Origin: a candidate division WOR-3 bacterium
Lineage (GTDB): Bacteria; Hydrothermota; Tepidihabitantia; Tepidihabitantales; Tepidihabitantaceae
Assembly (NCBI GenBank): GCA_965649205.1
Contig: CBFGJV010000006.1
Coordinates: 26,015 to 90,014 of the forward strand
Length of the DNA: 64,000 nt
Direction: 5' to 3'
The translations under genes were made by a program, and so were the position numbers. The notes under the pieces were generated by a model that was not told where the DNA came from, did no database searches, and saw nothing but the letters and a program-made list of their open reading frames with translations. Shown one piece after another: positions 3,336-48,185 of the stretch (its first letter is position 1; each line of letters starts with the position of its first letter).

Positions 3336-4033
3336 GACATATAGGTCCGCTCGATACCAAGGATTATGCGCAAAGACATGGCAATACCGCCCAGCGCTAA
3401 ACCTATACCGATACCCCGGACCGCAGCTGCTGTGACAATAGACATAAGCCAGTCCTTGACCACCGCAAACAATTCTAGTCCGGCGAACTTGTCTGTTTCC
3501 AGACCGGGAATCATCAATCCGACCAGCTGGCCGATGCCCCGCCAGATGGCACTACCCAAGGGCACATTTCCGAGCATAACGAAACACGCCGCCACGAGCA
3601 ACAGAGTGGCGGCGAAATTGCGCACCCGAAAGGCTCTATACGCTGCCGAAACGATAAAAAAAGCCAGGCTGGCAAACATTGTCGCCTGCAGCGGCATTAT
3701 CACATAAGTGTAAAGCCACATGAAAGGAGCGCGCAAAGCAAACGGACTCTGGAAACGTATCCAGGAATAGAAACCCAACCCCATCGTCACAAACAAAGAC
3801 AAAACAAGCATCAGACTGTATGGCCAACCTTCCCTGCGCCGCCACACTCTGTTCAGGTGATGTCGCACCAACGAATCCAATCCTAAAAGAAAAGTGAAGC
3901 CCGATACTATCGCATACCAGTTGAGAAACCTGGATTCCAAGTCGCCAAACGGACGGTGGGGAATAGAGAATGCCACAATGAGCAGAAGCGCGGTAACAAA
4001 AACAATCAGAAGAGGGATATTCTTTTTCAACAT
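3332..4033 (-). CDS. Hypothetical polytopic membrane protein (gene 2 of cluster)
   Basis: 233 aa with about 6 TM spans. No known motif recognised. Confidence 0.6.
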   Translation of the reverse strand: MLKKNIPLLIVFVTALLLIVAFSIPHRPFGDLESRFLNWYAIVSGFTFLLGLDSLVRHHLNRVWRRREGWPYSLMLVLSLFVTMGLGFYSWIRFQSPFALRAPFMWLYTYVIMPLQATMFASLAFFIVSAAYRAFRVRNFAATLLLVAACFVMLGNVPLGSAIWRGIGQLVGLMIPGLETDKFAGLELFAVVKDWLMSIVTAAAVRGIGIGLALGGIAMSLRIILGIERTYMS

Positions 4034-13579: not shown

Positions 13580-13917
13580 TAGTTTCTGCCTTCCCGGCTG
13601 TATGCTGACTTGTGTGCCCCCCACTGACAAGAACCCTCCACCCAATGACTTCGGAGCCTACCCCGACTTCCAACCGCAGGACATAGCACGCAACCCACCT
13701 ACTCTTCCTGCCGCCATTGATATCCTACGCCAGTTCCCAACTGCCATGACCACTTAACCCGTTACCATCACGTCAGTTACAGCCAAAACTCTTTTTCTGA
13801 TTCGTACTCGTATTCGTTCCCCCCCCCTCTCCTGAACCTGCTGACCGACTCAGTGGGGGAGTCACTCCCCCATCAATTTCCGTGCCAATTTTGCCGTCTT
13901 CGGGCCGTTCTCTTGTC

Positions 13918-22364: not shown

Positions 22365-23043
22365 AATCCTCCTTTCTCACCTGACTCAAAGGCAATACTT
22401 TCCCCTCGCGCAACATCAGAACCTCATCAGCTACAGCCGTAACTGCTTCCAAATCGTGCGTCACCACTATCTCGGTTTTACCCTCTTCGCCTCGCAAACT
22501 GCCCAGAAGGCTACATATTCTCTCTCTCATTATCGGGTCGAGCCCGGAAGTGGGCTCATCAAGAAAAAGATAGCGTGGGTTCATTACTAGGGCTCGTGCC
22601 AGAGCTACCAACTTTATCATTCCGCCCGACAACTCCCTAGGCTTGAAATGGGCGCATCCCCGCATACCTACCTTTTCTAACGCCATGGCGACCCGTTGCT
22701 CTACAACTCTTTTGTCCAACCACTCGTTCTCTACCAGGGGTAGAGCTACGTTACCGAATACATCTAGAGAATCAAACAGCGCCCCTCCCTGAAATACAAA
22801 ACCGATCTGCTGTAATATACGTTGATTATCAGCAAAGGCTCCATAATGTATCGGCACGCCATCGTAACTTACTCCGCCCGTATCAGGCTTAAGCAGGCCC
22901 GTCATAATCCGAAGTAAAACACTCTTTCCCGCACCAGAGGCTCCCAGAATCACTAGAACGCGAGCATCAGCTACATTAAAGGTAACCCGATCCAGAACCA
23001 GACGAGAACCAAAACGCTTGGAAACTTCCCGTACTTCTACCAT
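22345..23043 (-). CDS. mlaF: ABC transporter ATP-binding protein MlaF
   Basis: Walker A GASGAGKS, signature LSGGM, Walker B LFLDEP. 232 aa. Confidence 0.85.
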   Translation of the reverse strand: MVEVREVSKRFGSRLVLDRVTFNVADARVLVILGASGAGKSVLLRIMTGLLKPDTGGVSYDGVPIHYGAFADNQRILQQIGFVFQGGALFDSLDVFGNVALPLVENEWLDKRVVEQRVAMALEKVGMRGCAHFKPRELSGGMIKLVALARALVMNPRYLFLDEPTSGLDPIMRERICSLLGSLRGEEGKTEIVVTHDLEAVTAVADEVLMLREGKVLPLSQVRKEDYEQVRT

Positions 23044-23867
23044 GCCCTGAAGAATATTAGGGCCACGACAAAATCGACAGCCAGTATCATTATGGAAGAA
23101 CTTACCACCGCCTTTGTCGTTGCCCTTCCTACCTGTTCTGCCCCTCCCCTGACAGCAAATCCAGCATAACAGCCGTTGGTACCAATGACCAAACCAAATA
23201 TCAAGGCCTTCACCAAACCCCCGAAAAAATCTCGGTCAAGAAAGAAACGGGTGACACCATAGACGAAGGTATGGGACGAGATATTCAAAACCGTGGACGA
23301 TACCCAGAGTGCCATACCAAGTGCCACTACCTCCATGAACACCACAAACACGGGCAAAACCACTGTCAGAGCTACTATTCTTGGCAGACAGAGGAAACGG
23401 TACGGATTTACCCCCATAACCATAAGCGCATCAATCTGCTCCGAAACCCGCATCGAACCGAGTTCGGCCGCAATGGCAGAAGCCGATTTCCCCGCAACCA
23501 CAAAAGCACTGAAAACCGGCGCCAACTCAATCAGCACCAACCGCCCCACACCCATACCTACAAAGTACTTAGGCACTACTCCCAGTAACTGATAACTTGT
23601 CTGTACCGCGGTTGTAAGCCCCACAAATACCCCGGCTACAAGCAATATCGGCAAAGCCTCCAGTCCCTGCTGACAAATTTGCTCCACTACCCGCGGCCAA
23701 GTACGACGCAAATCCCAGGGTTGGAAAACAGTCTTAGCCAGAAAAACAATATATCTGGCGGGAACGCCGACCCAGCTCACAGGCGCTATGTTAGCTCCGC
23801 CCTTCCAGGTGTCAATTCCAGTGACAGTAATCTTCAGCCCGCTTGACAACAAAAAGAAAGCTGCCAA
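23037..23867 (-). CDS. mlaE: ABC transporter permease MlaE
   Basis: 276 aa, polytopic. The order mlaF-mlaE-mlaD on one strand with 4-20-nt overlaps is the conserved Mla core. TTG start. Confidence 0.85.
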   Translation of the reverse strand: MAAFFLLSSGLKITVTGIDTWKGGANIAPVSWVGVPARYIVFLAKTVFQPWDLRRTWPRVVEQICQQGLEALPILLVAGVFVGLTTAVQTSYQLLGVVPKYFVGMGVGRLVLIELAPVFSAFVVAGKSASAIAAELGSMRVSEQIDALMVMGVNPYRFLCLPRIVALTVVLPVFVVFMEVVALGMALWVSSTVLNISSHTFVYGVTRFFLDRDFFGGLVKALIFGLVIGTNGCYAGFAVRGGAEQVGRATTKAVVSSSIMILAVDFVVALIFFRAW

Positions 23868-24038
23868 GATTCTCTCATAGTACGCGATTTAGTCATAGAA
23901 GCCGCCTCACCCCACCTTGCGCAGATACAGTTTGTAGCTTCGGAATTAGTACGCAGAGGCTGGGCCGAAGCCAATGCCGGTAACTTTTCTATTCGCGTAA
24001 CTGAAATCCATCCACCTGGGAAATCCAAACATCCATTA

Positions 24039-25178
24039 GTGCCACCACGCCCAGCCTTGGCCAACCAGACTTTGCTCATCAAGCAAGCCGGGGGCAGAAT
24101 GCGCGACCTTGCTATCAACCCTTTACCCAACCTGTGTGTTATATCTATATCTGAAACTGGCGACACTTACGAGCTACTGGGTGATAGTCCACCATCGAGC
24201 GAACTTCCTGCTCATCTTGCCATTCACGAAACACTGCTACACTTTCGACCTGCCCACGTCTGCGTGCTGCACAGTCATCCCACTGCCCTTGTGGCCTTGA
24301 GCCTCCGTTATCCCGAACCGGAAAGTCTACTCGCTCTGCTTTTTCGAGCCCATGCAGAAATGTCATTGGTACGAGATGAGATTTACGCTCTACCCTTCTT
24401 GGCACCTGGCACTCAAGCGCTGGCCGAAGCTACCGGCAAAGCTTTCTGTAAACATTCGGGGGTCGTCTGGTCACGCCACGGCATGATTGCATCCGGCTCG
24501 GACCTGTATAAAGCGCTGGACCTACTGGAACTATGTGATAAAGCAGCCCAAATCTCCCTTCTTGCTGGTGCTCCCCCACCGGTTAGAAACGTTACCCCCC
24601 CCCCCAGCAAGCTATCTAAACGCGGCTTCCTCGCAGCAGACGGCCTGGAAACATTCTACGACGTTAAATCTCTTGACTCTACGCTGCCTTGGGAGGAATT
24701 CAAACGCCTACCTCGCATTCCGGTAAGCTTGGTACTAGATAACCTTCGTTCTGCCTTTAATGTCGGCTCCATTTTCCGTCTGGCTGATGCCGTACGTGTC
24801 AAGGAGATAATCACTTGTGGATATACCGCCCATCCTCCGCATCCAAAACTAGAACAAACCGCACTAGGTGCAACCGCCTTTGTTCCTTGGCGCGCTGTTC
24901 CTCAGACAACTACGGCTTTACAAGAACTCAAAGCAAATGGTGTACAAGTTGTGGCTCTGGAAACCGCAGCGAATGCACAGCCCTACGACCATTTTCCCTT
25001 CAGAGCACCGTTGGCATTAGTTTTAGGGAATGAAGCACTGGGAGTATCTCAATCCACCCTCCAGGCCTGCGAGGCAATAATTGCCCTGCCCGTATTCGGA
25101 TTTAAGAATTCCATCAATGTAGCGGCAGCCGCAGCAGTAGTACTGTACGACCTTGTCCGCCGATACCGCTGGCTCTGA
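24039..25178 (+). CDS. Fusion protein of a class II aldolase/adducin-like N-domain and a SpoU/TrmH-family 2'-O-RNA methyltransferase C-domain. Probably N-terminally extended to about 23880 with no canonical start codon
   Basis: The C-terminal domain has LVLDNLRSAFNVGSIFRLADA...LVLGNEALGVS...INVAAAAAVVLYDL (SpoU motifs). The N-terminal domain has the HSHP metal-binding motif of class II aldolases. The frame is open and conserved upstream (…ELVRRGWAEANAGNFSIRV, matching the aldolase GN(V/F)S motif) back to the stop at 23844. It contains no ATG, GTG or TTG. Confidence 0.7.
   Translation: MPPRPALANQTLLIKQAGGRMRDLAINPLPNLCVISISETGDTYELLGDSPPSSELPAHLAIHETLLHFRPAHVCVLHSHPTALVALSLRYPEPESLLALLFRAHAEMSLVRDEIYALPFLAPGTQALAEATGKAFCKHSGVVWSRHGMIASGSDLYKALDLLELCDKAAQISLLAGAPPPVRNVTPPPSKLSKRGFLAADGLETFYDVKSLDSTLPWEEFKRLPRIPVSLVLDNLRSAFNVGSIFRLADAVRVKEIITCGYTAHPPHPKLEQTALGATAFVPWRAVPQTTTALQELKANGVQVVALETAANAQPYDHFPFRAPLALVLGNEALGVSQSTLQACEAIIALPVFGFKNSINVAAAAAVVLYDLVRRYRWL
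24595..24605 (+). repeat. C11 homopolymer inside the aldolase-SpoU interdomain linker
   Basis: gttaCCCCCCCCCCCagc encodes TPPPS. This is the longest homopolymer noticed in the window. Confidence 0.6.
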
Positions 25179-38582: not shown

Positions 38583-39695
38583 TTAGTTCATAACTTTCAT
38601 GGACCTAGCCGGACCGACTACATACCCTTCAGTCAACACATCCTCGCCAAAACACCTGTGCCGGACCTTCTGCAGAACCAGTGCCCGTCCAAAGCTACGC
38701 GGCTTCATCCTGGCACCAAAACTTCGACCCGGTCCTATAATTTTCGGAGCGTGAAAGAAACATATCTTGTCCACGATGCCGGCATCCATAGCCGTGGCGG
38801 CCACCATTGCCCCACCTTCCACCAAAACCGACATAACTTCCCGACGATATAACTCGGCCAAAATGCGAGACCACGACAAAATTCCTGACTTATTTCCCCT
38901 GCCTATCGCCACCACCTCTGCTCCAGCTCGTTCCAACAGCTCTCTCCGTTTCTGGTCGCGCGAACTGGTAAACACCAGCGCAATTCCTTTACCTCTTAGA
39001 AATCGGCTGCGAGAGGAAACTCTCAACTCAGAATCCAGCACCACCTTCAACAAGGGCCGCCTCCGATTCAACCGACAATCCAAACTGGGGTCATCATATA
39101 GTATCGTTCCCGCTCCCACGAGCACTGCGTCCGACGCCTGCCGCAGTTTCTGCACTTCTCTCCTTGCCTTTTCACCTGTAATCCACTGCGACTCCCCCCT
39201 GCTAGTTGCCACCATGCCATCCAGACTCAGAGCCAGTTTCAGAGTGACAAAAGGCCTGTGCCGCGTATGGTAACTAAAATACCCCTCATTCAGACGTTTC
39301 GCCTCTTCGGTCAGCATCCCCACCTGTGTAAATATCCCAGCCTCAGACAAACACTTCATTCCCCGACCCCGGACTCGAGGATGAGGGTCCAGCGTAGCCG
39401 CAAAAACGCGTCTTACGCCGGCTCGTATCAAAGCATCGGTGCAAGCACCGGTCTTACCGCAAAAACAACAAGGCTCCATGGAAACGAAGAGGTCAGCCCC
39501 GCGAGCCCTGGCTCCCGCCTGCTTTAGAGCTTCAATCTCTGCATGTGGCCCACCGAAACGGCGATGATAACCACATCCAACTAACTTGTTTCCCTTGACC
39601 AGTACTGCTCCCACCATTGGATTTGGAGAAGTGAAACCCTGGCCGCGTCGCGCCAGACGCAAAGCCAGACGCATCATCTGCTCGGACACGGCCAA
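38583..39695 (-). CDS. ribD: Bifunctional riboflavin biosynthesis deaminase/reductase RibD
   Basis: CMP/dCMP-type deaminase motifs (HAEIEAL, MEPCCFCGKTGAC) plus a RibD C-terminal reductase domain. Confidence 0.88.
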   Translation of the reverse strand: MAVSEQMMRLALRLARRGQGFTSPNPMVGAVLVKGNKLVGCGYHRRFGGPHAEIEALKQAGARARGADLFVSMEPCCFCGKTGACTDALIRAGVRRVFAATLDPHPRVRGRGMKCLSEAGIFTQVGMLTEEAKRLNEGYFSYHTRHRPFVTLKLALSLDGMVATSRGESQWITGEKARREVQKLRQASDAVLVGAGTILYDDPSLDCRLNRRRPLLKVVLDSELRVSSRSRFLRGKGIALVFTSSRDQKRRELLERAGAEVVAIGRGNKSGILSWSRILAELYRREVMSVLVEGGAMVAATAMDAGIVDKICFFHAPKIIGPGRSFGARMKPRSFGRALVLQKVRHRCFGEDVLTEGYVVGPARSMKVMN

Positions 39696-48132: not shown

Positions 48133-48185
48133 TTGCCCCCCCCTCCCCAGCCCCCCAGCCACTCCCCCAGTCGTTGCCTCCCCAA
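48133..48185 (-). repeat. G-tract cluster (C-rich on the + strand) fitting a G-quadruplex motif
   Basis: Minus strand: GGGGG-N7-GGGGGG-N2-GGGG-N1-GGGGGGGG. It lies in the 960-bp non-coding region between nfnA and secG. Confidence 0.3.

Follow-up and report, generated by a model that had tools for sequence, protein, structure and literature searches.

Results

A two-domain gene whose frame opens without a canonical start codon

We examined a 64,000-nt stretch of the genome of a candidate division WOR-3 bacterium (GenBank assembly GCA_965649205.1, contig CBFGJV010000006.1, positions 26,015 to 90,014; here called the window), and in it a plus-strand gene that joins a class II aldolase-like domain to a SpoU/TrmH-type RNA methyltransferase domain. 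From 23847 to 25178 this gene translates without interruption over 443 sense codons, in a frame that is closed on its upstream side by an in-frame TGA (23844-23846) and whose first canonical start is a GTG (24039-24041). An earlier reading made from the DNA letters alone (the sequence-only reading) had reported that the frame stays open for 64 codons ahead of this GTG without any ATG, GTG, or TTG, and our translation confirmed this. Because these three triplets account for 6.7% of internal codons in the window genes, the chance of meeting 64 sense codons without any of them is approximately 0.012.

The only in-frame near-cognate codons upstream of 24039 are ATA, at 23877, 23895, and 23925; among the ATA and ATT candidates named in the sequence-only reading, the former are therefore present, while no ATT lies in frame. 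ATA is an ordinary isoleucine codon in this genome region (33% of Ile codons in the window genes), which ruled out an explanation based on codon rarity. The candidate that we favor as the start, ATA 23877-23879, would give a coding sequence of 433 aa plus a stop codon (23877-25178) comprising the aldolase domain, a flexible linker, and the SpoU domain; the 54 residues that this start adds ahead of GTG 24039 include the stretches IEAASPHLAQIQFVASELVR and GWAEANAGNFSIR. No GGAGG-like Shine-Dalgarno (SD) site is found within 25 nt upstream of ATA 23877, while other window genes carry one. Folding prediction for the 50 nt that begin at 23877 gave essentially no structure (minimum free energy of -2.7 kcal/mol and an open centroid). 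An Rfam scan of the window returned three tRNAs only, none of them with a CAU anticodon, and detected neither a leader nor a riboswitch ahead of the aldolase-SpoU gene.

Both domains retain their active-site residues

Profile hidden Markov model searches confirmed both domains. Pfam Aldolase_II (PF00596) matched residues 30 to 237 of the 443-residue translation (95.3 bits against a gathering cut-off of 22.2; profile positions 6 to 182 of 183), and SpoU_methylase (PF00588) matched residues 293 to 434 over its full length (111.1 bits against 29.7; positions 2 to 142 of 142). The upstream segment does correspond to a class II aldolase N-terminus, as had been proposed: in addition to the Pfam match, the alignment to the NCBIfam RhaD model begins at residue 21 of the same translation, 6 residues past ATA 23895, so homology extends well upstream of 24039. 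Given these domain matches and an open frame with no ATG, GTG, or TTG, both the upstream homology and the missing canonical start are real.

With residues counted from ATA 23877 here and below, the RhaD-like aldolase domain spans approximately residues 1 to 230 (23877-24566) and matches Escherichia coli RhaD at E = 4e-25. Residues G35, N36, S38, E109, H132, H134, and H201 are invariant among 21 aligned family members. E109, H132, and H134 align to E117, H141, and H143 of E. coli RhaD, H201 aligns to H212 through a WxxHG motif, and the GN site aligns to G31-N32. The NCBIfam RhaD equivalog models NF002963 and TIGR02624 were not reached (155.1 against 170 bits and 108.7 against 400.95 bits, respectively), and no rha genes adjoin the aldolase-SpoU gene in the window or at the loci L001, L162, and L163; going by its sequence, the domain is RhaD-like and not demonstrably a RhaD orthologue.

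The SpoU/TrmH (SPOUT) methyltransferase domain (24723-25148) matches structures of AviRb and TrmH (E ~1e-14) as well as RlmB, and the family motifs NxGxxxR, GNE, and KNSxNV can be read in its sequence. Its scores fall below the equivalog cut-offs for RlmB (Gm2251; 86.9 against 160) and TrmH (Gm18; 73.9 against 227), and it bears a conserved extension of approximately 35 residues, DGIETFYDVRSxDS. Between the two domains lies a poorly conserved linker (residues 237 to 265; 24585-24671) that is predicted to be disordered. Both active sites look intact.

The family alignment was used to build an AlphaFold (AF2) model, whose mean predicted local distance difference test (pLDDT) score is 86, with values mostly above 80 in the aldolase domain and below 50 in the linker. 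Within the aldolase core, the model places a helix at residues 2 to 27 and strands at residues 36 to 41, 51 to 53, and 65 to 70 (pLDDT of 71 to 97), and the G35-N36-x-S38 site is located there. A start at GTG 24039 would drop 54 residues, including the helix, the first two strands, and the GN phosphate site, in agreement with the earlier argument that it would remove the first helix and the GNxS site, while a start at ATG 24099 would drop 74 residues and with them the third strand. In the predicted structure, the N-terminus is needed for the aldolase fold.

Initiation at one of these two codons would leave a truncated, nonfunctional aldolase remnant on a working SpoU domain, with the upstream homology persisting as a relic or serving as a promoter or 5' untranslated region (UTR). 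They are the sole canonical codons available, AUA is a poor start in the bacteria in which it has been tested, and the flexible linker of the model would permit the SpoU domain to fold alone. Moreover, the gene caller behind two public entries, P0001 (identical to the window protein and called as 359 aa) and P0002 (92% identical, called as 360 aa), picked ATG 24099 (24099-24101), and a GGGGGC located 4 to 9 nt ahead of this codon could serve as a weak SD; no SD-like sequence precedes GTG 24039. Met 24099 is, however, a family-conserved internal residue of an AGxRMRD motif, and no orthologue starts there. As this motif is conserved in the family, the G-rich run in front of it is explained by its glycine codons.

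The upstream segment is conserved in a second genome

L001, the contig that encodes P0002, comes from a separate sequencing run and matches the window in gene order. Upstream, the frame of its gene is likewise open, again lacks a canonical start, and carries ATA at both positions homologous to 23877 and 23895; as this independent sequence has the same ATA and no ATG, the start-less extension is not a sequence or assembly error. We compared the window gene with the L001 gene by the Nei-Gojobori method, which gave a synonymous divergence (dS) of ~0.41 over the whole gene and a nonsynonymous-to-synonymous ratio (omega) of ~0.1, with no stops or frameshifts. By segment, omega was 0.33 over the 54 codons from ATA 23877 to GTG 24039, 0.088 over the rest of the aldolase domain, 0.26 over the linker, and 0.048 over the SpoU domain. 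From 23877 to 24038, 15 of 162 sites differ and no indel occurs, while ~50 differences would be expected from the gene's synonymous divergence of 0.31 (P = 2e-11); the nonsynonymous changes in this segment number 8 over 123 sites (P = 2e-11). No relatives with identities between 92% and ~64% were found in a protein search, a scan of metagenome contigs, or a scan of GTDB genomes.

These comparisons argue against initiation at 24039 or 24099. The 54 upstream codons are open and indel-free in both lineages and have diverged approximately 3-fold less than synonymous sites, the family-invariant N-terminal residues are all kept, and the low omega of the remaining aldolase, metal ligands included, is unexpected for a remnant devoid of helix 1 and of two or three core strands. 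Since these starts would delete the N-terminus of the core, it would be difficult to account for the selection that acts on the rest of the aldolase, and we regard both canonical starts as unlikely. By the same measures, the aldolase domain is under strong purifying selection and is not degenerate. The second possibility raised in the sequence-only reading, that a disrupted 5' end had left a degenerate and noncatalytic aldolase module, is contradicted by this selection and by the invariance of the catalytic and metal-binding residues.

Alternatively, the start codon might have been lost in a gene that has recently become a pseudogene, or the ATA might itself be an error of sequencing or assembly. 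A single transition that removes the ATG is the simplest form of gene inactivation, and a C11 homopolymer in the linker could mask an indel. Nevertheless, the ATA is common to two genomes at a dS of ~0.4 whose copies of the gene have retained constraint and an intact frame, and two independent data sets concur on it, which makes this explanation highly improbable.

We also considered, and rejected, an upstream start in another frame or a programmed frameshift, because a TTG at 23843 is out of frame and the short upstream open reading frames (ORFs) differ between the window (46 aa) and L001 (12 aa), owing to a 1-nt indel between this TTG and the ATA. In the window, the TGA within a -35 hexamer prevents any further upstream extension of the aldolase frame itself, and the longer open frame of L001 is not conserved.

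A conserved promoter lies at a fixed distance from the family start codon

The alignment of approximately 20 full-length orthologues runs through the N-terminal extension, and they have a start methionine (in one case valine) 10 to 25 residues ahead of a GWAEANAGN motif. At loci with enough upstream sequence, a canonical start lies 22 to 33 codons before this GW motif, the window and L001 being the sole exceptions among orthologues. None starts at the equivalent of 24039; the orthologous starts all map upstream of it.

In the window, the sequence preceding the ATA reads TTGACA (23843-23848), 16 nt, CAAGAT (23865-23870), tctctc, and ATA at 23877, which is thus 6 nt past a -10-like hexamer, 28 nt past a -35 hexamer, and 27 codons ahead of the GW motif. 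The -35 hexamer, whose internal TGA is the stop that closes the frame, is conserved in L001. The -10-like hexamer is preceded by TGc, as in an extended -10, and its role is suggested by consensus geometry; an alternative register, AAGATT (23866-23871), would have a 17-nt spacer. This CAAGAT/AAGATT sequence is common to the window, L001, L005, L006, and L086, while most other orthologues have CAATAT and some have CAACAT or CAGTAT. Both promoters of the divergent region that the gene shares with its upstream neighbor, mlaE, are conserved between the window and L001, while the stretch between them has diverged and contains indels.

The same arrangement recurs throughout the family. At ~45 of 47 distinct orthologous loci, TTGAC[ACT] (mostly a perfect TTGACA) stands at the same distance from the start and is followed 16 to 17 nt later by a NANNAT hexamer, and nearly all of these loci have an in-frame ATG, GTG, or TTG 27 to 33 nt after the -35, that is, 4 to 10 nt after the -10. 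Because the start codon follows the -10 so closely at these loci, the mRNA is probably leaderless or nearly so, and the transcription start site (TSS) would lie at or within a few nucleotides of the start codon. The ATA falls within this range in both genomes, at 28 nt past the -35 in the window and 29 nt in L001. The match is closest to L086, which reads TTGACC-17-AAGATT-5 nt-ATG where the window, in the same register, reads TTGACA-17-AAGATT-5 nt-ATA. ATA 23877, one transition away from ATG, is therefore positionally homologous to the family start codon, and it is the sole ATA within the window to match the leaderless pattern. GTG or TTG takes the leaderless start position in approximately one-quarter of the orthologues, so non-AUG starts appear to be tolerated there in this clade, provided that the mRNAs are leaderless. 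The sequence-only reading had missed this conserved promoter, by which the transcript would begin at the start codon.

The second in-frame ATA (23895-23897), or another near-cognate codon, might instead be used on a leader of approximately 15 to 20 nt (~18 nt for 23895). This ATA is likewise conserved in L001, it lies 21 codons ahead of the GW motif and so close to the shortest orthologue N-termini (22 codons), and it corresponds to approximately residue 3 of E. coli RhaD. It has no SD upstream, however, and short leaders lacking an SD inhibit initiation in tested systems (PMC8459731); unlike ATA 23877, it is also off the promoter-to-start distance that the family conserves. We therefore consider this placement of the start to be quite unlikely, and AUA 23877 is the codon that we would expect to be used.

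Proposed initiation from a 5'-terminal AUA

On balance, and with slightly better than even confidence, we favor a model in which the ATG of a leaderless ancestral gene mutated to ATA at 23877 and the gene is still translated from that codon. According to this model, the gene would encode a 433-aa protein in which a flexible linker connects a RhaD-like class II aldolase to a TrmH/SpoU 2'-O-methyltransferase, and a sigma-70-type promoter (TTGACA, 16 to 17 nt, CAAnAT) would put its start codon at or near the mRNA 5' end. A single G-to-A transition in the common ancestor of the window genome and L001 would have turned the leaderless ATG into ATA, purifying selection would have acted on the gene ever since, and the 5'-terminal AUA would be read through near-cognate pairing with the initiator tRNA, probably at a low level. 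Since purifying selection persisted after loss of the ATG, the gene is most likely still translated from the 5'-terminal AUA. Homology and constraint reach upstream of all the canonical starts, and a near-cognate codon is conserved, in the two genomes that share it. The positions of the orthologous starts and the ATA of L001 thus support the noncanonical initiation that the sequence-only reading had entertained.

Several observations weigh against this model. Leaderless initiation in E. coli shows a strong preference for AUG. The same preference is strong in the bacteria that have been tested, and in Caulobacter reporters, AUA and other near-cognate codons drastically cut expression (PMC8459731). 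The case for a leaderless AUA comes from two genomes and from promoter geometry, and the TSS is placed solely by likeness to a consensus promoter. Within the N-terminal segment, the excess of synonymous changes is marginal (7 of 15 changes; P = 0.048), substitutions are distributed over the three codon positions as 4:4:7, and omega exceeds that of the remainder of the aldolase domain. Because the ATA is carried by two genomes only, the power to detect codon-level selection is low, and it is formally possible that the nucleotide constraint has another cause, such as a 5' UTR element.

Fused and split forms of the aldolase-SpoU pair

A search of 5.8 billion proteins returned ~20 full-length two-domain proteins of 426 to 480 aa that are 48 to 64% identical to the query. 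The named two-domain proteins all derive from metagenome-assembled genomes (MAGs) of candidate division WOR-3, and the public entries go under automatic names. A literature search for an aldolase-SpoU architecture found no paper describing one, and the sequence-only reading had not recognized such a fusion as a described architecture; the ~20 fused WOR-3 proteins in public databases show that the fusion is not unique to this genome. Algal and other eukaryotic proteins (e.g., from Prymnesium) were also among the matches of the protein search.

Scans of metagenome contigs and of GTDB species genomes added ~60 loci. Among 46 distinct loci, the two domains form a single fused ORF in 14 and are encoded by two genes in 32. 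At almost all of the split loci (L010-L030 and L089-L109; for instance, L013 at 3690-3693), the aldolase stop and the SpoU start overlap by 4 nt, as ATGA or GTGA, which is a classic arrangement for translational coupling. The SpoU start at split loci lies 54 to 55 codons ahead of a LDNLRSAFN motif, the junction is highly conserved, and it maps to the inter-domain linker of the fused form. As 32 of the 46 loci are split with this overlap, and as the linker is poorly conserved and predicted to be disordered, the fusion is a derived state of a WOR-3-wide gene pair. A look for conserved neighbors that could hint at a function showed that, beyond the pair, gene context varies (window, L001, L162, and L163), which suggests that the pair is its own transcription unit.

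Family N-termini are mis-annotated in both directions. While P0001 and P0002 are called too short, the public calls for P0005 and P0006 (480 aa) and L083 begin 30 to 50 residues upstream of the promoter-consistent start, at an ATG or TTG in or before the TTGACA box.

More distant homologues were also recovered. L074 (2941-3045) is a distant stand-alone aldolase homologue on a GC-rich metagenome contig, with no ATG, GTG, or TTG between the upstream stop and the GW motif; a CTG (2959), preceded by GGGAG, sits 28 codons ahead of the GW motif at the exact position of the ATG in L077. This CTG may be a second, independent noncanonical start in the wider family. L111-L161 are stand-alone SpoU proteins with a DGIETFYDVRS-type N-terminal extension and ~50% identity, from MAGs labeled Latescibacterota, Gemmatimonadota, Fibrobacterota, KSB1, and Chitinivibrionia; the aldolase part was not matched at these loci, whose flanks lay outside the comparison.

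The C11 homopolymer of the linker (24595-24605, plus strand), which encodes Pro-Pro-Pro, is specific to the window; L001 has AACCTTACCCATCCC there. A +1 slip within it would bring the aldolase ORF to a stop a few codons later, with SpoU out of frame; the tract may serve in phase variation or reflect an assembly error. Other long C runs in the window lie at 13819-13827 and 48136-48143.

mlaE and other promoter-adjacent starts in the window

The divergent neighbor of the aldolase-SpoU gene is mlaE (23037-23780, minus strand; Pfam MlaE), which encodes 247 aa from its most likely start, GTG 23780. Its promoter on the minus strand reads TTGACA (23815-23810), 16 nt, TAACAT (23793-23788), 7 nt, and GTG 23780, again with leaderless-type geometry, and L001, whose mlaE is annotated at 247 aa, has an ATG at the position equivalent to 23780. 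TTG 23867, at which the longest ORF begins, is probably not the true start. The earlier placement of the mlaE start there, which would leave a gap of ~10 nt to the aldolase frame, thus gives way to an intergenic space of 96 nt between GTG 23780 and ATA 23877.

Eight further real gene starts of the window share this geometry. Besides mlaE at 23780(-), these are 514(-), 14907(+), 37955(-), 39689(-), 44344(-), 62190(-), and 63123(+), each of the latter seven located 5 to 9 nt past a TTGACN-16/18-NANNNT site. Many other window genes carry strong GGAGG sites. Since both kinds of start occur, the organism seems to mix leaderless and SD-led initiation. The longest-ORF starts of some leaderless-type genes (e.g., 38583-39695) are probably a few codons too long.

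Discussion

If our model is correct, the aldolase-SpoU gene would provide a natural example, in a bacterium, of a leaderless mRNA translated from AUA, informing the start-codon strictness of 70S and leaderless initiation outside model organisms and pointing to relaxed start-codon discrimination in leaderless initiation in WOR-3. We tentatively propose, at a level of confidence somewhat short of even, that WOR-3 is a free-living bacterial lineage in which a functional gene maintained by selection is naturally translated from an AUA at the 5' end of a leaderless mRNA, and that the coupled or fused pair may have an undescribed joint function. The case is a variant of known phenomena, namely, translation of leaderless mRNAs, initiation at non-AUG codons, and fusion of the domains encoded by an operon pair. 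In practical terms, gene callers truncate the aldolase-SpoU protein by 74 residues in P0001 and P0002 and probably mis-call other leaderless WOR-3 genes.

The phylum-wide occurrence of a coupled or fused pair with both active sites intact points to an uncharacterized functional partnership in which an enzyme of the sugar-phosphate aldolase type works with one of the RNA 2'-O-methyltransferase type. The best structural relative of the N-terminal domain is E. coli RhaD (L-rhamnulose-1-phosphate aldolase; PDB 1GT7 and 1OJR), with which it shares aligned zinc ligands, catalytic glutamate, and phosphate-site residues. Unlike RhaD, the aldolase here is ~30 residues shorter at its C-terminus, scores below the equivalog cut-offs, and is always paired with or fused to a SpoU methyltransferase. 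The C-terminal domain likewise resembles the TrmH, RlmB, and AviRb 2'-O-methyltransferases in its SPOUT motifs and structure matches, and differs from them in falling below all equivalog cut-offs and in its DGIETFYDVRSxDS extension.

With respect to initiation, the locus resembles the leaderless mRNAs of Mycobacterium, Deinococcus, and Caulobacter, in which a sigma-70-type promoter sets the start codon at the 5' end without an SD, although here the TSS is deduced from promoter geometry. It shares with them a fixed, short promoter-to-start distance and the lack of an SD, and departs from them in having, in the window and L001, ATA in place of a 5'-terminal AUG or GUG. The start codon of known leaderless genes in bacteria is AUG or GUG, rarely UUG; GTG is accepted beside ATG in leaderless genes of some clades (PMC9094748, PMC4007540, PMC8459731). 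The bacterial leaderless literature that we examined contains no natural, selection-maintained 5'-AUA case, and the only documented use of a leaderless AUA in the literature examined is in mammalian mitochondria (PMC11775629, PMC8459731). Mammalian mitochondrial mRNAs, like the mRNA proposed here, combine leaderlessness with AUA initiation, and AUU starts also occur there. Mitochondria differ in reading AUA as methionine by means of a modified tRNA-Met and a specialized initiation factor 3 (IF3), and nothing points to such machinery in this organism.

Another parallel is found in the AUU start of infC and in an AUA mutant of T4 rIIB, where, as proposed here, a near-cognate AUN codon is read by the initiator tRNA at lowered efficiency. 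IF3 discriminates against near-cognate AUN starts, and by analogy, expression from such a start may be sensitive to IF3. In E. coli, a phage murein hydrolase started from AUA reached 7.5% of the level obtained with AUG, and the AUG-to-AUA mutation of T4 rIIB cut translation by ~85% at 25 °C, so that AUA supported ~7.5 to 15% of AUG expression in these cases (PMC5499595). Both infC and rIIB have SD-containing leaders, in contrast to the gene described here, which has no SD and whose AUA would stand at or near the 5' end of its mRNA.

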